Assembly (NCBI GenBank): GCA_951406725.2
Contig: OX597829.1
Span: 3,968,001 to 4,032,000, forward strand
Direction: 5' to 3'
Length of the DNA: 64,000 nt
Origin: Octopus vulgaris
Lineage: Eukaryota
The first letter of the stretch is position 1. Every line of letters starts with the position of its first letter. Under the pieces are notes generated by a model, which was given only the letters and a program-made list of their open reading frames with translations, searched no databases and was not told where the DNA came from. Position numbers and translations under genes: made by a program. This document shows, piece after piece, positions 1 through 62,400 of the stretch.

Positions 1-240
1 TGTGTGTGTGTGTGTGTATATATATATGTATATATATATATATATGTATATATATATGTGTGTGTGTGTGTGTGTATATATATGTATATATATATATATA
101 TGTGTATATATATATATGTTATATATATGTGTGTATATATATGTGTGTATATATATATATATGTGTATATATATATATGTGTGTATATATATATATGTGT
201 GTATATATATATGTGTGTGTGTATATATATATGTGTATAT

Positions 241-274
<34 letters not shown>

Positions 275-425
275 GTATGTATGTATATGTATGTATGTAT
301 ATGCATGTATATATATATATGTATATATGTGGTAATATAATAAATAATAAAATATATGCATATATACATACATATATGTACATACATCTACATGTATATA
401 TACATGCATATATATATATATATAC
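1..425. repeat. (TA)n/(TG)n compound microsatellite
   Basis: Direct reading; explains the YI/CV ORFs. Similar tracts at 738-784, 4879-5222, 9770-10037, 12040-12290, 44460-44640, 46264-46515, 54910-55320, 58563-58725. Confidence 0.98.
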
Positions 426-735
426 GAGTACAGGACACCACAAATAAACGTAGAACACAACGAGAGACGAGAACATAAAATCAAACAAGGAAACGGACTT
501 TTTTTAAACAACGAAAAAACAGAGTACAGGACAAACAATACAAGGAAAATACCCCTTCATCAGCTGTCCCTGGTTCGACTCAAAGTGTGTTTCGAAGGTA
601 AGGACAGAACACAGTCGAAACAATCCTTCCTGCAAAAGGAATTAAATAAAATTCTTTTGCAGAGGGGTAAAACAAGTGACAAAAACAGGACCTAAAAACA
701 ATACAAATGAAGATAAAACAGTACAATAAAACTGT

Positions 736-737
<2 letters not shown>
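424..737 (-). mobile_element. TA-flanked non-autonomous repeat, possibly Penelope pLTR-derived
   Basis: Bounded by (TA)n on both sides. Shares 'gggacag..ctgatgaaggg....ttgtcctgt...tcctgtac' (minus) with 40355-40500 (+) and 45843-46005 (-). Confidence 0.55.
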
Positions 738-787
<50 letters not shown>

Positions 788-940
788 TGTTCTTCCAAAA
801 TCTGCTATTGTTGGAATAGCTCATAGCTTTTGAAGGATACTTTTTGTGTAAAACCATCTGTTTAAGACTTCACAGTTAATATAGAAGAGGAGAAAAAGCA
901 ACAAAATACCTATAATAATTAGTAATATGGTTGTGATACA

Positions 941-1055
941 TGTTCCTAGTGTACCCTTATCAGACGAGTAGTCTTGATGGGTGTATAGTGCTTTGTATAT
1001 TTGTACACCAGTGTCAATTTGATGACATGCATTGCTCTCTCACTCAATGATGATG

Positions 1056-1092
<37 letters not shown>

Positions 1093-1178
1093 CAATAATG
1101 ATGATGATAATGGTAATAATAATGATGATGTTAATAATAATAATGATGATAATAATAATAATAATAATAATAATAATG
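941..1178 (+). mobile_element. 3' end of retroposon family E with (AAT/GAT)n tail
   Basis: gtgtacccttatcagacg...gcattgctctctcactcaat is the reverse complement of 28212-28290; followed by a long (AAT)n tail. Confidence 0.75.
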
Positions 1179-1356
1179 GTAGAAGGCCAACAATTTCGAG
1201 GGAGTGGGTAAATCAATTGCATTCAGTTTGACCTTAATTTATCGATTCCGTAAGGATGAAAGGCAAATAATAATGAGAAGAGTGAAACACTGGGCTCGAT
1301 GTAATCGACTTGCCGCCTCCCCACAAATTTTAGGCCTTGTATTTATAATAGAAAGG

Positions 1357-1391
<35 letters not shown>

Positions 1392-1406
1392 TACTACAAA
1401 TACTAA

Positions 1407-1525
1407 GGCGATGAGCTGGTAGAATTGTTAACACGCCGGGCGGAATGCTGCTAAACATTTCGTCCGTCTTTACGTTCTGTGTTCAAATTCCGCCGAGGTC
1501 GACTTTGCATTTCATCCATTCTTTT
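1407..1525 (+). mobile_element. SINE family A, partial copy
   Basis: ggcgatgagctggtagaa...gttcaaattccgccgaggtcgactttgc, homologous to full copies such as 5475-5705. Confidence 0.85.
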
Positions 1526-1621
1526 TCGTTTCTGCCAGCTCGCCACTTTCATGATAATGATGATGATGATTAATAGTACTTATCTTTTAAATATGTGGAT
1601 CGATCTTTCAGGTTGTTTGTG

Positions 1622-1935
1622 TGTGAGGCTATGTGGCAAGCATCTTGCTTCCCAACCACATGGTTCCGGGTTCAGTATCACTGCGTGATACCTTGAACAA
1701 GTGTCTTCTACTATAGCCTCGGACTGACAAAAACCTGCGTTTGTCCCCCACCATCACTTGAGAACTGGCGGTGATGCGTTTACGTCCCCCGTAACTTAGC
1801 GATTCGGCTAACAATAAGTACCAGGTTTTTTAAAAACAAAACAAGTACTAGAGTTGATATATTCGACTAAAAAAAAAAAAAATTCTCCAGGGCGGTGCCC
1901 CAGCACGGCCGCAAACTAATGACTAAAACAAGTTA
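1622..1935 (+). mobile_element. SINE family B (tRNA-like head, CORE-like 'ccttgggcaagt' box), diverged
   Basis: ggctatgtggcaag...ccacatggttccgggttcag...gtgccccagcacggccgc...tgactaaaacaag, homologous to 25147-25526. Confidence 0.85.
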
Positions 1936-4553
1936 AGAGATTTAAAAAAAACAAAAAGATATACGCGTGCGCGTATATGTCGGAATGAATCAATGTTCCT
2001 TCCCTATGGTGTTTTCGATAAGACTGACAAGGTAAGTTAAGTTTTTAACCCTCAGCGACGGAATAATGGGTCATTGATGAAGATTAATCAATTTTGAAAT
2101 CATCAATGATATGACTCCCATTCGCTTACCGTAGGGAGCACGTCTCCCTTGTCAGTCGTTAGAAAAGTAGTCTCGCGTGGCTAAGAGTTGTTTTGACTCT
2201 TATTTCTAGCAATGACTAGCACCCTCAGTTACTTTAGCAACGATTATACATCTGCCTTTCGCTTCTAGGTTGCGGATAGCCACCTTAATCATACACGCAC
2301 ACACGCGAGGACAGATATGTGTGTGTGTGTGTGTCCGTTCGTGTGTATATATGTCACCCGTGCGTGTATTTATATATGCATGCGTGTCATCCCGCGCTTG
2401 CACATCCATGTAAACTCGGGCATCCTTTAAAGAGTGGGGCGGAGTGATAGAAAGAAAAAAAGGGAAGAAGAGAAAAGCTAATTATATCTTGATTAGGATC
2501 AGTAGATTTGATGCCACTCAACTGATCGACTCTGTCTGCCATGGCAGCAATGCAATCAACCACAAACAGTCTAACTCTGCAGAATGGGATGCCTTTGTCA
2601 GTTTTCACTTTTGCTCGTCATCATTAATTTAGTGTGATGCCACCGCGACCACCACCCCTGATCCCCCTTCCTCCTGCTCCTCCTCCTCTTCACTTTGGCT
2701 TCCTGTAATCAGTTTCTGCTGTCCCTTCTCCCTCTCTCTCGCCCTCCTCTTACTACTACTCTTCCTCTTCTCCCGACTCACAATTGCGCAGGACGGATTG
2801 GCTTTCATTTATATTTGTTTTATTTATCTATTCTTTGTGTTTTTGTATTTGTTTCTAATTTTCTTTTTCTCCCTCGCAAAATGATATTATCGAGTAAGGA
2901 CTTGATAATATTTCTCTGAATCCATTTTTCTTACAAATGGCATCAATGCAAAAATATGGCATCGTTGCAAAAATACTTTTATAATTATTGATGTTGTTGT
3001 TTTTCCCTGTTTTATGGGGAGGGGGTGTTGTATGTCCCCCCCCCCTCATCCGAGAAAAACTATTGGCCATCTTCTGCGTCTATAAACATTTATACATTGA
3101 AGTTTATACTTTTGCTAAGTTCATTTGGCGTTCAGTGACGAGATGATGTTTCGTGCAGTTTTTCGCCTAACATGAAAACTTCCATGTAAAATTAGTGAAT
3201 AAGTCTTTATAATAGCTATTTCTTGAAGTTAAAGATCGTAACACTTGGCCAATATAGCCTACTCGGGTAAAATAACTTGCCTGCTAAAATGGCTAATGTA
3301 TATTTCACCGAATTGGGCATGGCTTAAAATGAGCAACCTCATCTTTGCGAATCTTTACTGTTTTTCCAAAGGGTTATTTCGTCTGTCCGCGGTATACCAA
3401 CTCAGTTTTTGATTAGCTTCTTTCATAATTCGTTCTCTCTCATTCACTCACTCACTCATCCTCTCTCGCTCTCTCTCCTCTCTTGCTCTCTCTCTCTCAA
3501 TCACTCTCTCCCTCCCTCCCTCTCTCTCCATATGTGTGTATGTGTTTGGTGATGCAAACAGGAAGGTTGAACTCAAAACATGATACAGATTTTTGTATTG
3601 CAAATCGGCAGAAGTTACAGACTACATTTACACTCATCAGACTTTATCTCTCAGTAATTTCTGCCGTTCAACAACAACAACAGTAGTAGTAGTAGTAGTA
3701 ATAATAATAATAATAATGATAAAATGATTCTTTAGTCGATTACATCGATCATAGTGCTCAATTCCGAAAGGATGAACAGCAAAGTCGACATCGGCGGAAT
3801 GTGTGTGTGTGCGTGCGGGGGTGGGGGGTAATGTTTTATTTCCTTTCAGATCTTGTGTCCTTTCGTTTTTTTGGAGGAAATTTAACCTGTTTCTAGTAGG
3901 TTGAACGATTACACAATAGTTTCTCAATAATAATAAGATGTTGTTGCTAAACTACTCGAATGACAGAAAAAGAATTTTCGTTATTATATTTAATTATATA
4001 TCTTTACACTTTATTATCCCAGATGAGATTTAGCTGTTATTTCTAGCATATCAAGAAACTACACACACACGCACACACACACACACATACACAGCATCAC
4101 GTTTATCTTTAAGTGTTGAGTGTGTATGTGTGTGTGTACATGCTTACATATATACAATCATACATGCATAGGGGTTTAGGAACAAAAACGACAACAAAGA
4201 AATACAAATTGATTCATTTTATGCCCTAAAAAAGAAGCGGAAGAGACCTCAAAGCTCTTTGGTCAAATTGAGAAGCGTGGATGACGTTTCGCGGAAGCAA
4301 TGCTATTATGGAAGATATGTCATGATGAAATGAAATATATGACAGATGAATAAAGTGAAATGGTATCACCCGACCAAGACCTGTTTCTTTCCAAGGGAGA
4401 TAATGTACAAGAACTTACGTTTTGTAAAGCCAAGGAAAACAGTGAGAATAATGTCCTTTTATGTGACACGGTCTTTCAAAATGTGACCTCGTGTGTACCG
4501 TTGGCGATTTTTTTTCCTCCGTCTTCCCTTCTCTGGATCTTTCCTTTTCCTTT

Positions 4554-4588
4554 GTTTCTGACGAAGAGCTCTGCTCGAAACATTAAAC
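4554..4588 (+). ncRNA. Minimal type I hammerhead-like ribozyme motif (Penelope pLTR type)
   Basis: gttt-CTGACGA-a-GAGC-tct-GCTC-GAAA-catt-aaac: core boxes, 4-bp stem II, stem I gttt/aaac. Stem III 'aacatt' looks like a CpG-decayed palindrome aacgtt. Confidence 0.65.
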
Positions 4589-4704
4589 CCTCCTTCTTTC
4601 CTTCTTTCTTGAGCGTCCAATAACACTATATTTGTTCCACGTCCTCGAGTTGTTGTGTTTTCTCTTTGTGTTTTCATTTTTGGATTAACTAATATATATA
4701 TATC

Positions 4705-4875
4705 AATGAAGTTAAACACAGGTGTTATTCAAATTCATTTACTTCCGACACAAGTTTCGAAGATATCACTGGTATTATTCCAAAGGAATAAAATGGTGCA
4801 AAACAAAGTAATCTTCTCTTCAGGGAAACATGTGTTGGAAGTAAAAGAATTTGAATAACACCTGCGTTTAACTCC

Positions 4876-4878
<3 letters not shown>
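4705..4878. mobile_element. Fold-back element with ~47-bp inverted arms, flanked by (TA)n
   Basis: aatgaagttaaacacaggtgttattcaaattcatttacttccgacaca vs tgtgttggaagtaaaagaatttgaataacacctgcgtttaactccatt (few mismatches). Confidence 0.85.
4742..4828 (-). ncRNA. Type I hammerhead ribozyme with complete canonical core
   Basis: Minus strand: tttcc-CTGAAGA-gaagat-(46-nt loop)-atcttc-GAAA-c-ttgt-GTC-ggaag. Stem I ttcc/ggaa, 6-bp stem II closed by G-C, short stem III, GUC cleavage triplet. Confidence 0.75.
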
Positions 4879-4929
<51 letters not shown>

Positions 4930-5474
4930 ATGTATGTATATATATGTATATATGTATATATGTATGTATATATGTATGTATATATACATGTATGTGTGTG
5001 TATATATATGTATATATGTATGTATATATATGTATCTGCATATATGTATGTATATATATATGTATATATACATGTATGTATATATATATGTATATATGTA
5101 TGTATATATATGTGTGTGCATATATGTATGTATATATATATATGTGTGTATATATATATGTATATGTACAGTATATATGTATACATACATATGCGCGCGC
5201 GCACACACACACACATATATATCTACTTATAAAAAGATGGGAAGATCCGAATCCTTTTGACTGAAAGTTTGCAGAATCAAAGATGACTCGGAGCTGCCTA
5301 GATATTTCAAACTTAACAATGTATCTTGAGCTTTTTTTGTCTAATACAGAATATGACTCGAGATGTGTTGAGTGTTATTTTCGCCAGCTTGACGATCACG
5401 TTGAGTCTTCTTCGTTGAGATTGTAGAAAAACATTTGCTAAAAGCTACATGTTGAAATAGGTGAAATAATACTG

Positions 5475-5705
5475 GGCGGCGAGCTGGCAGAAACGTTAGC
5501 ACGCCGGGCGAAATGCGTAGCCGTATTTCGTCCGCCGTTACGTTCTGAGTTCAAATTCCGCCGAGGCCGACTTTGCCTTTCATCCTTTCGGGGTCGATAA
5601 ATAAAGTACAAGTTACGCACTGGGGTCGATGTAATCGACTTAATCCGTTTGTCTGTCCTTGTTTGTCCTCTTTGTGTTTAGTCCCTTGTGGGTAGTAAAG
5701 CAATA
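5475..5705 (+). mobile_element. SINE family A, full-length
   Basis: A-box-like gagctggcagaa and B-box gagttcaaattcc; central gcctttcatcctttcggggtcgataaataaagtac resembles the MetaSINE-type domain as recalled; tail ...gggtagtaaagcaata. Confidence 0.92.
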
Positions 5706-5884
5706 GATATTAGGTACCCTGGGTACATCATGTCGGGAATATTAAAAATATAACGCTGCTTTCATGTATACATGTATGTATATGTTGGTTTTGTTTAGCT
5801 CCTGATAAGGCCTAATGAAACACTTATGATTGAAGGTATGTCATTCTTGACATCCGCAGATGTTTAGAGCTTTGTAGAAGTATA

Positions 5885-6090
5885 GTCGGGTGGTTAGGGT
5901 ATTGCACGCGTGATCGTAAGATCGTGGTTTCCATCTCAGACCGAGCAGGGCGTTGAATAAAACACTTTCACGTTGCTCTCCAGTCCACTCAGCTGGAAAT
6001 GTGTTCTAGCAATTAGTGTGAAGTTGACCCCGTCAGGGACCAGCATTCCGTCCAGGGGAGCACTGCCGTAATCTCATTTATACGCCATGA
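5885..6090 (+). mobile_element. Diverged tRNA-derived SINE (head related to family C)
   Basis: gtggttagggtattgcac...gtaagatcgtggtttccatctcagacc resembles the head of 46521-46810. Confidence 0.5.
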
Positions 6091-7054
6091 AAATGTGTTC
6101 TAGCAATTACATAAAATTACAGAAAATGATGTCACGTTTTATTTACTTAAGACATTTTTTAACGAGAAATTTGAAACATAAGGGGTGTGTGGGGGGGGGG
6201 AGTGGCTTGGGTGTTGTACGCACTTTCATTGGTTCTTCTTTGGTCGACATTGATCTGAGAGCTAAACGCCAACTATTGCAACACATAAAATGTATGTATA
6301 CTCCATAATGACCGGTAAACAGGAATAAATATAAATAAAAGACTAAGCTCATGCCACCCAGTTACCACTTTGGCAATTTATTACTACACACAATTAACAC
6401 AATATCAATTATGATGCTTATCAACATATGTATCTCATTAATAAACGTTTAAAAGATTAGTCGTTCACAGCGAAAAGTAAAAGCCGTATAAGTGAGACAT
6501 GAATCTCAGAGAGAAAACTCACTCTACTTGTAAACGTAAAATAATGCTTTAATACCATTAACATCTGTCTGGCAGAGAGAGAAGCTTAGATTAGCCGATT
6601 GGAATCTGACGTCAACTTGATCTATTGTCTTGGATACAATGCCTGCAACTATCACTGCTCACTTTTTGTGCCGATGCTGCCTCGGTGCCGTTTTGCGTTT
6701 GTAGGGAATAAAGATGCTGGCTTGATCATCTTGCATCTGACAACGAATTTCAGCTTTGTAGTGTTGATGTAGATGGCGCAATAGTATAGATGTAATGACA
6801 CCACCACTACTACTACTACTACCACCACCACTACCACAATGTCGAACAACTGCTGCTATGATTTTTCTTTTCACTCGTGAAGCGCCAGATTGTGATAAAA
6901 ACGCGACATACAACGCGATTCAAAAGAAGAAGAATCTGATATACGTGTGTGCGCGCGCGCGGGAAAAATGTTCTTGGTGTAGTCGAATGTTTGATAATTT
7001 GTTTTTGTTATAATTTGTCTTTGTTTTCATCCTCAGAATAAAAGAGAAATAGGG

Positions 7055-7640
7055 ATTTCTTTGGTCTTGATTAATTATTCATCCTGTTGAATAATTTTTG
7101 TCTCTGGAAGAATATTTTAAGTTCTTGCAGTCATCACTCTCGTCTCCTTGACTTTCTGACTATTATACAGATCACCATGATCACCGTAACCGACCAGGCT
7201 ATCAGATGTTGCTACACATCGCTGGTCACAATGCGCTTTGCATTGTTTTAGCCTTCAAATGACGCCACCCCCGCTGGCTAAGCGAGCAGGCCAACAGAAG
7301 AAAAAGTGGGAGAAAGTACGGTAGGGATCGCCAGCACTCCCTGCCGGAGCGGAGCTACACTCACAACGTCCGGTCTGGGAATCGAAACCGCGATCCTACA
7401 ACCGCGAGTCTACTGCCCTAACCACTGGGCCATTGCGCCTCCACATTATACAGATATATCTTGCCTTAATAAAATTCTTTTAATATGGTTTCGGGTGGTA
7501 AGACCTGAAGTTTAAGTATCGATGTGTACCCGTATCTTTCTACTAGCGATCATCTTGCTTAATTATCAGAATGTCCCGAAATGGCAATTCCCCTTCATTC
7601 ATTTCTGTTGTGAATTTTATCGATCCGTAAATGATCGTTG
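7055..7640 (-). mobile_element. Decayed Penelope-like element reverse transcriptase fragment
   Basis: Minus translation IKFTTEMNEGELPFRDILII (PLE IxFTxE...LPFLD motif), then frameshifted HRYL/NFRSYHPK and, after the SINE insertion, LQELKIFFQRQ. Confidence 0.75.
7171..7444 (-). mobile_element. SINE family C inserted in the PLE remnant
   Basis: Reverse complement of 46521-46810 (ggcgcaatggcccagtggttaggg head); TSD attatacag at 7162-7170 and 7445-7453. Confidence 0.9.
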
Positions 7641-8448
7641 ATTGATTGATTGATTTTTTTTTTTTTTTTTTTTTTTGTAATCTTGTAAAATCTTCCCTAA
7701 ATTTGGTTTCAAAATATGAATCTGCTACCGGGAAATTTTTTTTCCAGTTTTCTGAAAATCTGATCAAAAATTGATGTCCCATCTCGATGTGTGCGTGCGT
7801 GTGCGAAGAAGAAAAAGAAGAAGAAGAACAACAACAAGAAGAAACTTGTTAGAATACCATTGATTGAGAAATCGAACGAAATCGAAAGGTGTTTGTGAAA
7901 ATAGGTTTTGGGATAGAGAGCTGAAACTGGAAGAAATCAAATTTAATATTGAAATAAGAATATATGGAAAATACTAGGATGGTTATTACATTTACTAAAC
8001 TAAATAGAAGATGTACCCTAAAAGAGACCAAACAACACCTTGAGGTGGAGAGCTAAGTTGAAAAGGATGTAGCAATATAGAATAAGTTGTACTGGCGAAG
8101 CAGTGATATGTGGGATTGTGTTGTAAAGTGTGAGCGAGAGAGGAGTAAGGGACTTTGTTTTATCCCCAATAAACGAAGAGAGGTGTGTAGTGTGAAGACT
8201 GAAGCAGAAGGATATTACAAACTGATGAAAAATAGAGAGGAGAAAGAGAAGAAAAAAAATTATTATTTCACGTTATCGAGAAAGATAAACTGTGAACTTG
8301 ACTGAAATATAAAGGACATACGAGGAAAAGAAAGAGCAACGGAAATCATGATTGTGGGTGAACAAGAAGAAAAAGTTGTAAATATCAAATTGTAAATATC
8401 AAATGTAAGTCAAAGTCGTGAAGTTGCCAAGTGTATATGAAATGTAAG

Positions 8449-8657
8449 AAGCAGCGAGCTGGCAGAAGCGTTAGCACGCCGGGCGAAATGCTTAGCAGCA
8501 TTTCGTCCGCCGCTACGTTCTGAGTTCAAATTCCGCCGAGTTCGACTTTGCCTTTCATCCTTTCGGGGTCGATTAAATAAATACCAGTTACGCACTGAGG
8601 TCGATATAATCGACTTAATCTGTCCTTGTTTGTCCTCTCTGTGGTAGTAAAGAAATT
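8449..8657 (+). mobile_element. SINE family A with 15-bp TSD
   Basis: TSD tatatgaaatgtaag at 8434-8448 and 8658-8672. Confidence 0.92.
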
Positions 8658-9765
8658 TATATGAAATGTAAGTCTAAGTTAGTGAAATTGCCAAGTGTGT
8701 ATAACATATCGTTTTGATTAACTCGGAGTTGGAACAGTGTCGGTAAGCGGAGCCTGAATCATGACTTGAAGTTTTACTTTGTTGTTCTTATATGTAGCAA
8801 GATGGTGAAGATTTTAAACGAAGAAAACCACCGGATAAAGGGAAAAAAAGATATAGTGTATCGCTAGTGGGAAGTTTCAATTGAAAATAAATGAAAACTT
8901 ATAAAGGCATCGTCCAGGAATTATTTGCTTAAAATTATTTGCAAGATTTGTAAAAATTTACTGTAATAGGGAGCAAAAAGCTCATCTGTGATGACGATAA
9001 AGTTTTTAGAAGGCCTCAAAAGATACTTCTTGACTTCCATACCTTTTGTTATTTCTGTTTATTATAGAGTTCGCTTTCAGAGGGAGTGAGTGTGTGTGTG
9101 TATGCGTGTGCGTTTGTATTATATTTACATACTCTTGATGTGACGACGGCAAATATACACTAACCAGCATATCACTTCACCTATCGTTGTAACCTCGCTA
9201 CCATTAGACAGGGTTTGAGTCACTGCTGCATCACACTAATCCATGACCTCTTGGCACTAATTGGCAGCCGATTAAATGCACAATAGTACTTGGATCGTGT
9301 CTTATATTATCTTTCCTCCCCGAAAAGTGAAAAACAAAGTCAATCTTGGCGGAAAACATAAAGAGCCGGAGCAGTTACTTTGAGGTATTCTGTTCCATGT
9401 TCTGACGATTCTGCCAGTTCACCGTCCGAGTAAGAATGTACGAGATTACTCATTTTCCAACTCCTTACAATGACAGCCCATGTTAATTATGACCCTACTA
9501 ATGAATTTCAGGTACATATTTCCTGAGACGTACAAGCATACACGGCAATACAGATAGGCTAGGGCTTTCAGAGAAAGAAATCAATCGATTCTCACATCAC
9601 AAATACAATCTGTTAGTGGAACAGTTAAAATATGCAAGACTTTTATCAAATTTAAAACGGGACATTGTTTTTGCTATCTACATTCCAACAAAAGAGCTTT
9701 GTATCTTTGCTAGAAACCAGCTCCTTCCTCAGAGGAAGAACTTAAATAATTAAAAACACAAGAGA

Positions 9766-9821
<56 letters not shown>

Positions 9822-9843
9822 GTGTATGTATATATAATATACA

Positions 9844-9884
<41 letters not shown>

Positions 9885-10115
9885 AGACAAAAGAGTAATA
9901 TATCATGTATATATATATATCATGTATATATATATATATATATATATAAGAGCAAAAGAGTAATATATCATGTATATATATATATATGTATGTATATATA
10001 TATATATATGTATGTATATATATATATATATATATAATAAATATTAGGAATAAATCCAAAATTACAGGAAAAAAATCAGATTTAGGATTAAATAATTTTA
10101 TATAAAATATATAAA

Positions 10116-10318
10116 ATATATATATTTTGCAAACAAAAAGGAAAGACTAATAATACATAAAATTTTAATAAATAGAGCAACAATCGTTCTTGTCTTGATC
10201 GACAATTTCAGACTAATAAGTCAGTTTCAATCATAATTTGAAACGACTATCCTGAATTGTCGAAGACAAACTATATATTTATTAAAATTTTATGTATTGA
10301 TATCTTTCCTTGTTTGTT

Positions 10319-10335
<17 letters not shown>
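10116..10335. mobile_element. Fold-back (MITE-like) element in TA context
   Basis: ttttgcaaacaaaaaggaaaga...aatacataaaattttaataaata pairs with tatttattaaaattttatgtatt...tctttccttgtttgttttgcaaaa; inner stems tcgacaatt.cag/ctgaattgtcga and gtttcaa/ttgaaac. Confidence 0.75.
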
Positions 10336-10371
<36 letters not shown>

Positions 10372-11587
10372 ATATTTATGTATTAGTCTCTCCACTTGTG
10401 TGTGTGTGTGTTTCATTAACCCTAGATCAATCCTATTTACTTGGTTCATTCCTCATATAGAAAATTTTATATTAAAATTATTTTTGATCGCCGATGAAGA
10501 TGTTCGAACTTGCATCACCTTTGACACAAGTCGACCTGGTATTTCTGTCATGTGATACTGAGTAAACCAGTGAAATTATCCTCTCTCCCGCGCTCTCCCC
10601 CCCCCTCTCTCTGTTCTATCTTCAGAGACTAACATGGTGTCAAAGTCATATTTTAATGAAATTGTTATTACAATGGAATCATTATTGATTCAATGTATGA
10701 ACCGTGTTATTTAATATTCCATGTTAAAGTTAATTTCCTTCCGTCTTTATTATATATATATATATATATCAATGTTCTAGAAATGTTTCAAAATTGAAGT
10801 GTAACCTCGCACACATATTTCCCATGGTGGCAACTGTTCACCAGTATTTTCCTCCTCTCACTCGAATGCCAGCAGATGTTGTCGCGCCCGCGCGCGCTCA
10901 CATCGTTTCTTTCTTCTTCCGTTTCTCTCACCTCTGTCACTGCTGCTAGTGGCATTTCTCTCACGACTGTCGATTCTTTCTGCAGCCATCTACCTATCAG
11001 ATGCTGTTTTCTCCGTCATAAATATCAAGCGAGATAGTAATTTTAACTAAATTTGGCAACTGGAAGTGTTTGAAAGCTACTAGTTTGATTTATAAACTTA
11101 TCTGCCGGGAATAGCAGAAGATAAATAACTTGAAGAGGAACGGTTGTCACGGAAGAAAGATGAGTTGTTACCCAGACACAGATGCTTGCGTGGATATCAC
11201 GAATGCCAAGATTGGTTGGTTGTCGAAGAAATGAGAAAATGGCGTTTTTACTTTATGTTATGCAGAACGATGTTGCAAAAAAACGAAGTTACTTTTCTTG
11301 TGTACACTGGAATGGTTATTGATAGCAATATTCGCATTTTCGAAGAATACTGTCTGTAAAGACAATTCTTAACTATTTCATTTTTATGAATATCAATGTT
11401 ATCGCTAAACAAAGCTTAATCGATAGAAAGAGGTGTAATCGAAATTTATTCCTCTTCTGTGACATTGTCTTAATGTCTTCATATATTGTTTTATTCGGTT
11501 GTTAGCCCTGATCATGTACAGCTATTGATCAAAAAGTGGTATCATCCCATATTTTAGGTGTAACTTGAACTAATGATCTCTATAATG

Positions 11588-11905
11588 CAGGGATTCTCAA
11601 CTATTTATTATTATTTATTTATGGACCCCTTTCGTTACTATTTCATTCTGGTGGACGCCATAGGCATTCGACGTTTAAAAACTAGTTTTATAATTCAAAA
11701 TTCCCTTTTTTTTATTTTTCACACATTAATTTTTGTAGGTTGGACGGTGTAAAGTGTTAGAGGAAGAAACCTAGCAGTTTCTTGCAATGCCATCTAAAGC
11801 AAAAGGTTTTCAGGGGCCCCTTATGATACTCTTGTGGATCTCCGATTTACTATTTTGTTGCGTGGACCCCAAAAATCTTAAATGGATTCCGGTTGAGAAG
11901 AACTG
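11588..11905. mobile_element. hAT (Charlie-like) MITE
   Basis: TIRs cagggattctcaac...gttgagaagaactg; 8-bp TSD ctataatg / ccataatg (7/8 match). Confidence 0.8.
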
Positions 11906-12120
11906 CCATAATGAGTTGTTTATTTAAAGTGACTGGACATTGTTCGTCAACTTGTTTCACTTTGTGACACACCGGAGATCAAACATAAATTTAGTGTTGG
12001 ACTTTCCAGATAATTTTTTCAAATATTAGTTAAAAATTCATATACATATACATATACACACACACACACACACACATATATATATGTATATATATATATG
12101 TGTATATATACATAATATAC

Positions 12121-59459: not shown

Positions 59460-62400
59460 ATAGTGTGGTTTGCTATGTCAAGTATAGGTTTTTGGAAATA
59501 TGACTTTTTAGCCACAATATCATCCAAGGAATAGAAAATGTGAAGCTTCAATTTTTTTATCTGCCATCTTGCATATATGGCAACAATAATAAAATGGTTG
59601 CTGAAAAAGTCAATTATTTGATAGCTTTCTGTAATATATTCAGGGCAATAATATGGTTTTTGGCATCAAAAAATTTTAATTTAACATTTCCAAATATAAA
59701 ACAGCCACCATTTATAAAATAGAGTACATTTCATAAGGAATATGACCGCTAATATATTTTGGAACTTTGCCTCTAGGAGTTGTATAGTGAAGGAAACTAA
59801 TGATCTGTGATTCGCTCCTATGAAGGAGCTGGATGTTTTTCAAAAGCACACAATGTGAAACTGTCCAGGTTGTATGACACATTTTTCTTTAAAAGAATCC
59901 TCTAAGTATGGAATTTTCAAAGCCCTCTTGCAGAGATCCATATCCATCCAAACAGATATAAGTGGAGCGTTCTCCCCTCTAACTATCTTGTTTAATTTAG
60001 AAAGATTTTCTTGTTCTGTTATCAATGTTGACCAGTGATTGGCTACAGAACATATAATGGGTAATGAGTGTGGGTAATCTATTCTACCACCCCTCTCAGT
60101 AATCACTGAATTCTATGCCCTCCATAAAGGTATGTCCTGCTTCTTTAAGTCTAGTTTTGAATTATCATTAAATTCTTCAGTGGTAACTTCAATATCTTCA
60201 GATTCAATAGTTGGTTGATCAGCTTCACTAGAGACATATGTCTCAAATTCACAATCCTGTAGATTTCTTGTCCCACATTTCTGTCTATTGAAATGTCTGG
60301 CCAGTAGCCATGCCAGATCAATTTCCTTTGCTGCCTTGGATTCTTCATACTGACCTAGCTGGAAGTCTGGATAATGTGGACTTTGGTATGGTGTTGGTCT
60401 TCCAGTAACATTAGTCTCTTGTATATCTAGTAGTGACTTGGGTATGTCTACTAATCTCAAGTCCGTAACTTGAGATTGAGGTGTAATGGGTCATTGAAAA
60501 TCTCCTCTCCACCAGGGGCTATTTCCTGGTAAATAGCCATGGTTGTGCCATGAAAAGAGTTTCTATCGCATCTGGAGTGTCTACATGACTATCAATGTTG
60601 TCGAGTGATCCAAAGATTGGTTTGTCCTTGCTAAGATTAGCTGGAATATATATTCCTTCATTTTTCTTCATATTGTCCTTCACTACACAAGCTATCTGTG
60701 AAATATGTTTTGTTACCTTGTTGAATGGTAACCCAATTCCATAGTGGTGAAGAAAGTTAATTTCTCTCTTGCTTCCATGTGCTTGATAGGAATGGGAGGA
60801 AATTCTACATGTTAGTGGTGTTTTAATTGAAACATCAGATTTTGCCTTGTATAGCATTTGTCTATCTGGCTTGTACATCTGGATTATTCGTTGCGTTAAA
60901 TTTTGGTGCATTATGTTTACTGTATATCTTCTATCTTCACTTGTCCCAATCCTTGTACCTTCAATAATCCAACACAGCAATGAATACAGCTCATGTGGTA
61001 TATATTTGTCATCTCCCATGAGGGAGCTACTAAAGTTTCAAGAGTTATTTTTGGCTTTATGAATTGCATGTCTCATTATCCTCCTTGCATCAAAAGGCTT
61101 TTGCATGTCTTTCTCATGACTGGCTACATCCAATTTGGCATCTATAGAAGAGGAGGAGTGCTTATTAAGAATCAACACTGGTTTGTTTTGAGCAACAGCT
61201 CTTGTAAACTTGATGTTTCTGCAGAGTTTCAAAATCTTTTCCTTTCGTTGTGTATGATTTATTTCTACATTGAGTCAAGTACATCAAAATAAAAATTCAA
61301 ATGGAAATTTTAGTTAAGACACCCGTGCCGGTAACATGTAAAAAGCACCGTCCGAATGTGGCAGATGCCAGTGCCGCCTAGCTGGTGTCAGTGTCGGTGA
61401 CACGTAAAAGCACCAACCGATCAAGGCCATTTGCCAGCCTGCTCTGGCCCCTGTGCCGGTGGCATGTAAAAAACACCCACTACACTCACGGAGTGGTTGG
61501 CATTAGGAAGGGCATCCAGCCAAATCAGACTAGAGCCTGATGCAGCCTCCATGGCTTCTAGACCCCAGTCGAACCATCTAACACATGCTAGCATGGAAAA
61601 CAGACGTTAAATGATGATGATGATGATGATTATCTATACCATGGTCATTCATGCATTCTTTGTAGAACTTCTCTACCTCTATTGTAGACATAATTTTGCC
61701 ACCATCTAAAGACAGTTGTAAATCTGCAAAGAATTCAATTTCTCCTGCAATGCTTTTAACGCTACATTTTTCTTTTGTATCAGTAAGACGATTTCCACTG
61801 GTGAAGAGCAATACTTTGCTTACTCTCTTGTCATACATAATTTGTAGTACATTATATCTTTTGATAGGGATGGTGGGGGGGGTCTTTCTCAGTTATGATT
61901 TCTGCATGATTTACTTTCCAGCTATCACTTTTCTGCACATTTCATATATTTGATTCCCAATATTCTCAGTGCTGCATGTAACTTTCCTGATTCTTTCCTT
62001 TGGAAAAAGAAGAAGCATTTAGATCTTTGGAATGATTTTGATATTGATCTTGTGAAAAGCCAGATGAGGTTGATGATTCTTGAACATTGGAGCGTGAAAT
62101 GGATGGATGACCACGCTTGCGTTTAAAGGGTAATATTGTCTCCTTTGCTATTGCTGCATCATATCTAGCCTTCGTTCTCTTCAGGTGGTTGCTTTGGAAA
62201 AACACTTTCTATGCCAGAATGCTTATTGTTTTGTCAAATAATCTGCAGTAATGTCTTTGCCAAGTCTTTCTTTCAAAGTAGCAAATTCTAGATCTTTCAT
62301 GTCGACCAAAGTATTCATTCGCCTGACAAATTTTTGAAATGTTTCTACAATTGGGTTTCTCACGGTGGGCCCAGTCTTGTTGATTAGGCAGATGATGCAT

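Follow-up and report, generated by a model that had tools for sequence, protein, structure and literature searches.

A hammerhead motif in Octopus vulgaris lies in two truncated Hydra-clade Penelope-like element ends, probably joined head-to-head in a TA microsatellite by one insertion

A short inverted repeat on contig OX597829.1 of Octopus vulgaris encloses a hammerhead ribozyme motif in TA-rich surroundings. The locus raises the question of whether it is a small mobile element whose ribozyme can switch between a hairpin and a self-cleaving fold, as an earlier note suggested, or whether the motif was trapped there when a larger element inserted. All coordinates refer to the window, the whole stretch of 64,000 nucleotides that was analysed. 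With a probability of about 0.88, we consider the 174 bp at 4705-4878 to be two 5'-truncated 3' ends of a Hydra-clade Penelope-like element (PLE), joined head-to-head in a TA microsatellite, likely in one insertion event, with the hammerhead predicted to be locked off. The parent family is called family A, and the features of the locus are as follows.

4705..4828, minus strand: long (sense) arm, the last 124 nt of the pLTR of a Hydra-clade PLE
4825..4878, plus strand: short (inverted) arm, the same pLTR end a second time, again 5'-truncated and beginning at the core GAAA
4825..4828, no strand assigned: TTTC/GAAA overlap of 4 nt common to both arms at the head-to-head junction, placed by comparison with the natural copies L071 and L011
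4692..4703, no strand assigned: left (TA)n tract, shared with a more abundant and unrelated repeat (about 4475-4691) at the 3' end of the latter
4879..5220, no strand assigned: right (TA)n / (TATG)n microsatellite, the insertion target
4743..4827, minus strand: type-I hammerhead with a 4-bp stem I, CUGAAGA, a 58-nt domain II, GAAA, a 2-bp helix III and GUC
4753, minus strand: A-to-U change in loop 3 (family ACAUGUGU, here ACUUGUGU), which breaks the self-complementary helix III

The (TA)n tracts flank the feature on both sides, in agreement with the TA-embedded setting described in the earlier note, and a target-site duplication is indistinguishable within the right (TA)n / (TATG)n flank. The inverted arms that it reported are real, but they are longer than its estimate of ~47 bp: they measure 54 nt each (4705-4758 and 4825-4878), are identical at 49 of 54 positions and include the whole GAAAC...GUC-GGAAG half. 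The long arm is truncated 5 nt upstream of CUGAAGA and ends without a tail at the proximal 3' end of the family (...CATT). In 24 of the 30 loci that scored best in the genome search, the corresponding 124 nt are 93-95% identical to it. Relative to the commonest family letter (n = 49 copies), the short arm differs at one position and the long arm at four. The displaced family tail has no match anywhere in the 64-kb window.

The unrelated repeat at 4475-4691 (plus strand) meets the TA tract tail to tail with the 174-bp feature and is more than 10 times deeper than family A in the run contigs. It carries CUGACGA, a short stem II and GAAAC at 4558-4581; no GUH lies behind them, and a GUC is located upstream near 4521. 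At 60522-61037 (minus strand), the window also holds a 172-codon open frame with no Pfam match, which may be a DNA-transposase fragment.

The minus strand contains a CUGANGA / GAAA / NUH core with three helices, and every hammerhead part named in the earlier note was found in its place. Stem I pairs UUCC (4827-4824) with GGAA (4746-4743), and the core strand CUGAAGA occupies 4823-4817. The 6-bp stem II (GAAGAU at 4816-4811 and AUCUUC at 4764-4759) encloses 46 nt, and the 58-nt domain II is composed of this stem, an inner helix and a hairpin. GAAA (4758-4755) is followed by the C4754-G4749 pair with its 4-nt loop UUGU and then by GUC, whose C17 is at 4747; the cut is predicted between 4747 and 4746. 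The motif is the single match to a type-I descriptor in the 64-kb window. Among Markov-1 simulated windows, the descriptor matched one of 200 with stem II set to at least 4 bp and none of 200 with at least 6 bp. A plus-strand ribozyme was not found in the element, in which CUGANGA is absent from that strand. The Rfam hammerhead models that had been proposed as a check did not match the motif, either at E ≤ 1 in 1-12000 or at E ≤ 10 in 4480-4878, and the other Rfam matches were just miRNA-hairpin look-alikes far below gathering scores. The long-stem-II hammerhead of the family evades the Rfam models.

The genome search returned 2584 candidates, from which 40 were scored and 30 loci fetched. One of these is the window itself, and in five the match extends over almost all of the query. 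In the remaining 24, the main hit covers only positions ~51-174, which correspond to the ribozyme and the 3' arm. Most of the 24 run upstream into shared sequence, up to ~990 nt between pairs of copies. The core pattern of family A has at least 345 exact matches, compared with none for the reversed control; exact patterns miss diverged copies, and the mean divergence of the family is 6%.

These data bear on the proposal of the earlier note that the locus is a small non-autonomous element; a MITE- or retrozyme-like fold-back of this kind would have been copied as a 174-bp unit. Its terminal inverted arms in TA and the five other loci matched over nearly the full length agree with such a unit, as does the recurrence of two other junctions at two loci each (L119/L120 and L156/L157), showing that fold-backs can repeat. 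The L156/L157 recurrence favours a hot spot because the tail sits on opposite arms. However, the five loci differ in junction, and the core is damaged in two of them. The exact junction of the 174-bp copy (-5/+65) matched only itself, and a looser pattern gave five matches, four of them with other junctions. We found no set of many copies sharing the same ends and interior, as in a MITE, and no tandem unit; the window holds one ribozyme with inverted arms and no second copy, as opposed to a retrozyme, and the arms are plain pLTR sequence. Copying as a 174-bp unit is very unlikely.

The identity of the parent element is indicated by two long copies (L112 and L113), which contain, in the ribozyme sense, a reverse transcriptase (RT) with YRDD, a thumb and a GIY-YIG domain with CxxC and CxH at its end, followed by ~200 nt of 3' UTR and then the hammerhead. 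Stops and frameshifts occur throughout these coding remnants. The earlier note is right that this is a Penelope-type, type-I hammerhead with a minimal helix III. A younger sister family, family B, has 1580 exact core matches and an intact 899-codon ORF with RWL, DKT, YRDD, a C-terminal GIY-YIG, CNLC and CPH, to which the main family-A pieces are 46-62% identical. The order of RT and C-terminal GIY-YIG, in the same sense as the hammerhead, is seen as remnants in family A and intact in family B. DKT and RWL are present in family B, and family A was recovered without its N-terminal part or a full-length ORF. The end of the endonuclease carries CxxC/CxH (CLLC and CKH in family A, CNLC and CPH in family B) and no CCHH. 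Insertion into (TA)n and a hammerhead in the pLTR are both present in the family. Pfam gave an RVT_1 match under its cut-off (E 5e-6) on a related RT piece and nothing significant in the intact Hydra-like ORFs. Compared by eye, the family-B ORF resembles the published Hydra-1_Obim motif by motif. On these motifs, we assign families A and B to the Hydra clade. Because both lack the CxCX5C linker, which is present in the related L100 family, we filed them as a linker-less Hydra-like subgroup. No published description of family A appeared in our literature search, whose scope ended short of subscription papers and Repbase; one family motif is absent from the PMC8557442 supplement.

Several relatives were encountered along with these families. 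Locus L153 (G000:C1:119513800-119522500) is a family-B tandem array with a period of ~3624 bp (3.6 kb), in which the 899-codon ORF is open in one unit; its ~160-nt family-B tail forms a GC-rich hairpin and has a short motif in common with the family-A tail. L100, L101, L102 and their relatives make up another young Hydra family, which has Asn-rich ORFs of ~955 codons and the CxCX5C linker; the sequence fetched from behind the ORF showed no canonical hammerhead. Two other families, C (L021:54-324) and D (L094:4797-4898), have the same long-stem-II hammerhead; L021 contains a head-to-head pair, and the L094 fold has a z-score of -4.4. L007, the first RT query, is located 3' of a family-A ribozyme but probably belongs to another insertion, and it served just to find relatives.

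Head-to-head pairing is common in these families. By an automatic test, 11 of the 30 loci picked by pattern have a head-to-head partner, some partners being partial or tail-only, as do 15 of 30 picked by similarity, which is a biased set. No abutting tail-to-tail pair was observed in the loci tested for partners. The first 100 family-B matches listed (73 loci) include 22 head-to-head, 5 same-strand and 0 tail-to-tail pairs, and the head-to-head gaps range from 18 to 5285 bp. In the 11 family-B pairs examined, one arm ends directly behind the ribozyme, at +135 to +143, and the other at or past ~+295, and in 7 of them the tailed arm is the arm reaching less far 5'. Unlike all 11 pairs, the 174-bp copy has no tail on either arm. 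In four loci (L001, L002, L003 and L008), a short arm ending near GAAAC is joined to differing TTTC copies upstream of CUGA. The GAAA of the ribozyme and the pyrimidine-rich stem-I strand therefore likely supply microhomology.

An inversion arising after insertion, by replication template switching or by repair at an AT-rich site, would account for the common end point of the two arms, and the 4-nt overlap is equally compatible with repair. However, this geometry recurs often in two families and is head-to-head in every case, and in the 7 family-B pairs the arm reaching less far 5' has a tail absent from the other arm, which copying of a neighbour cannot yield. We consider a later inversion highly improbable.

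Joining during insertion thus remains our preferred origin. The GIY-YIG/RT protein of the element would nick the TA target, and cDNA synthesis would start 42 nt 3' of the cut site. The template would have been uncleaved RNA, since both arms hold sequence 5' of the cut site. Synthesis would halt at -5 in the long arm and at +65 in the short arm, and the cDNA ends would anneal through TTTC/GAAA. For the family, we favour a short arm made as a second cDNA primed on the other strand: the arm pattern of family B appears to fit cDNA synthesis primed by each of the two target strands and begun at two start sites, which has been shown in vitro for a Poseidon element. Single-cDNA snap-back is unfit as a general mechanism for 7 of the 11 family-B pairs. 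In the 174-bp copy, the short arm may be a snap-back copy of the first cDNA because both arms end at the same point and neither is tailed. The trapping of the hammerhead in a hairpin was likely an accident during this insertion.

The ribozyme itself shows compensatory changes in stems I and II across related families, the pattern that the earlier note had suggested looking for in other copies. In 26 sequences from four related families, 7 of 18 pairs have a two-sided change, and 93.8% of cells are paired compared with 35-52% in slid controls; the sequences were hand-chosen from 89 distinct pattern hits, and the cells are not independent events. Because the rows were selected by the core pattern, the invariance of the core is by construction. 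The 8-nt helix-III segment keeps its self-complementarity through a U-G, U-A, C-G series at its centre, the hallmark of cleavage as a dimer; a dimer result is given in a passage of a review (PMC6765202). The ribozyme of the intact element most likely cleaves as a dimer through this helix.

The catalytic G12 is changed in 15 of the 92 listed copies covering it, mostly at CpG (hand count of copies chosen on downstream sequence alone), indicating that individual insertions are not kept functional. A pile-up of 5' ends at the cut site, which would be a sign of cleavage in vivo, was not seen among the first 100 of 363 matches; 8 of these start 3' of the start of GAAA, and 2 of the 8 lie at the cut site or within 2 nt of it (hand count). 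In a look for expression, contigs of runs X18, X19, X20 and X1 contained family pieces alone, and none spans 4705-4878. Separately, near-perfect small family-A palindromes occur at G000:C2:105233137, C5:68954952 and C4:45771815; they centre on TTTCGAAA or beside the cut site and contain only the 3' half of the ribozyme.

The 174-bp copy has decayed since its insertion. The loop-3 U at 4753 is rare (2% of 49 other copies), and the family letter accounts for ~98% of the contig depth in run X18. The dimer helix is predicted at -1.1 kcal/mol in this copy compared with -6.0 kcal/mol in the family, and the extended stem I of the family is shortened to 4-5 bp. The core, including G12 and C17, is intact.

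The full 174-nt RNA is predicted to fold as a single long hairpin (-81.6 kcal/mol). Relative to the ensemble, the active fold would cost 22.7 kcal/mol in the full RNA, 14.2 kcal/mol when the ribozyme has just emerged, and 2.5 kcal/mol without the arm; all these values are predicted with a nearest-neighbour model that leaves out protein. By folding z-score, the motif does not stand out (0.09 here, -4.4 to 0.03 for four relatives). The mutual exclusivity of duplex and ribozyme claimed in the earlier note holds largely, in that the inner arm has to open, but ~37 outer pairs are compatible with ribozyme formation and may stay. Its cleavage-capable conformational switch is not supported by the uphill energies of 14-23 kcal/mol or by the broken helix-III palindrome. 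A regulated switch would require that the ribozyme is restrained by the duplex and then freed by a helicase, by an antisense RNA or by transcription that starts within the short arm. The intact catalytic bases and the small cost of the active fold without the arm would permit this, and one PLE hammerhead has been reported to require its protein for cleavage. The short arm is, however, transcribed ahead of the ribozyme and imposes the full barrier, stem I and the dimer helix are impaired, the arrangement is unrepeated in the family, and catalytic bases are freely lost among its copies. We regard such regulation as extremely improbable; the fold-back is predicted to lock the hammerhead off rather than to act as a working switch, and the 174-bp copy is an ordinary two-armed Penelope stub.

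The family-level features are mildly unusual, namely the 58-nt structured stem-II arm that Rfam misses and the short-plus-tailed two-armed insertions. Tentatively, and with the odds against it, the linker-less Hydra subgroup may have a conserved 55-60-nt stem-II arm, with a covarying inner helix and a near-constant UUAUUC hairpin strand, that serves dimer cleavage by making tertiary contacts or binding protein, and its head-to-head insertions, with one short and one ~160-nt tailed end, may record two-strand priming from two start sites. Family B, with its many exact core matches and intact ORF, would be a good natural substrate for studies of PLE ribozyme dimerisation and head-to-head insertion. 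For scans of sequence, the locus is a caution that Penelope 5' inversions can be mistaken for a MITE or for a switch with a caged ribozyme.

Published accounts of PLEs describe inverted copies with truncated 5' ends, a tail on one side only and joins made through microhomology, and several known systems come close to the locus. The Hydra clade comprises C-terminal EN+ PLEs such as Hydra-1_Obim and Penelope-13_HM (Craig et al. 2021, PMC8557442). Families A and B share with the clade an RT followed by a C-terminal GIY-YIG (in a single intact ORF in family B), CxxC/CxH without CCHH, the (TA)n target and, close to the 3' end, a hammerhead in the sense orientation; DKT and the RW motif are shared by family B. 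The same source lists Penelope-13_HM with a 5'-truncated inverted copy at its own 5' end, similar to the arrangement described here. In contrast, loop 2 is 3-10 nt in the 26 Hydra rows published there, compared with the 46-nt structured insert of our motif; loops of 29-35 nt are listed there for two non-Hydra PLE-X elements. The missing CxCX5C linker also sets families A and B apart from the clade, and family A is a family of its own.

The metazoan PLE hammerheads of Cervera and de la Pena (2014, PMC4209133) are likewise type I with a short stem I and a large helix II, and the palindromic helix III and mostly solo truncated copies of our family are also found among them. Pairs 100-700 bp apart on opposite strands are described there, together with an inactive monomer and a weakly active dimer. 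Our motif differs from them in its much longer domain II, in having no extra unpaired base before stem II and, in the 174-bp copy, in the lost palindrome.

The head-to-head orientation and the overlap at the join resemble the inverted pLTRs of Arkhipova et al. (2013, PMC3846280) and Frangieh et al. (2024, PMC11167929). According to these accounts, each of the two strands is nicked and then extended by the PLE protein, the tail results from the use of two RT start sites, and uncleaved RNA is the insertion substrate. The 174-bp copy differs in consisting of two stubs only, both untailed, and the family tail is ~160 nt compared with 30-40 nt in those pLTRs. Animal non-LTR retrozymes, as outlined in excerpts of two reports (bioRxiv 10.64898/2026.07.22.740005; PMC7229834), are also non-coding and PLE-derived with a type-I hammerhead, but they consist of direct repeats in tandem, every unit of which has its own ribozyme, whereas the octopus locus is a single inverted pair.
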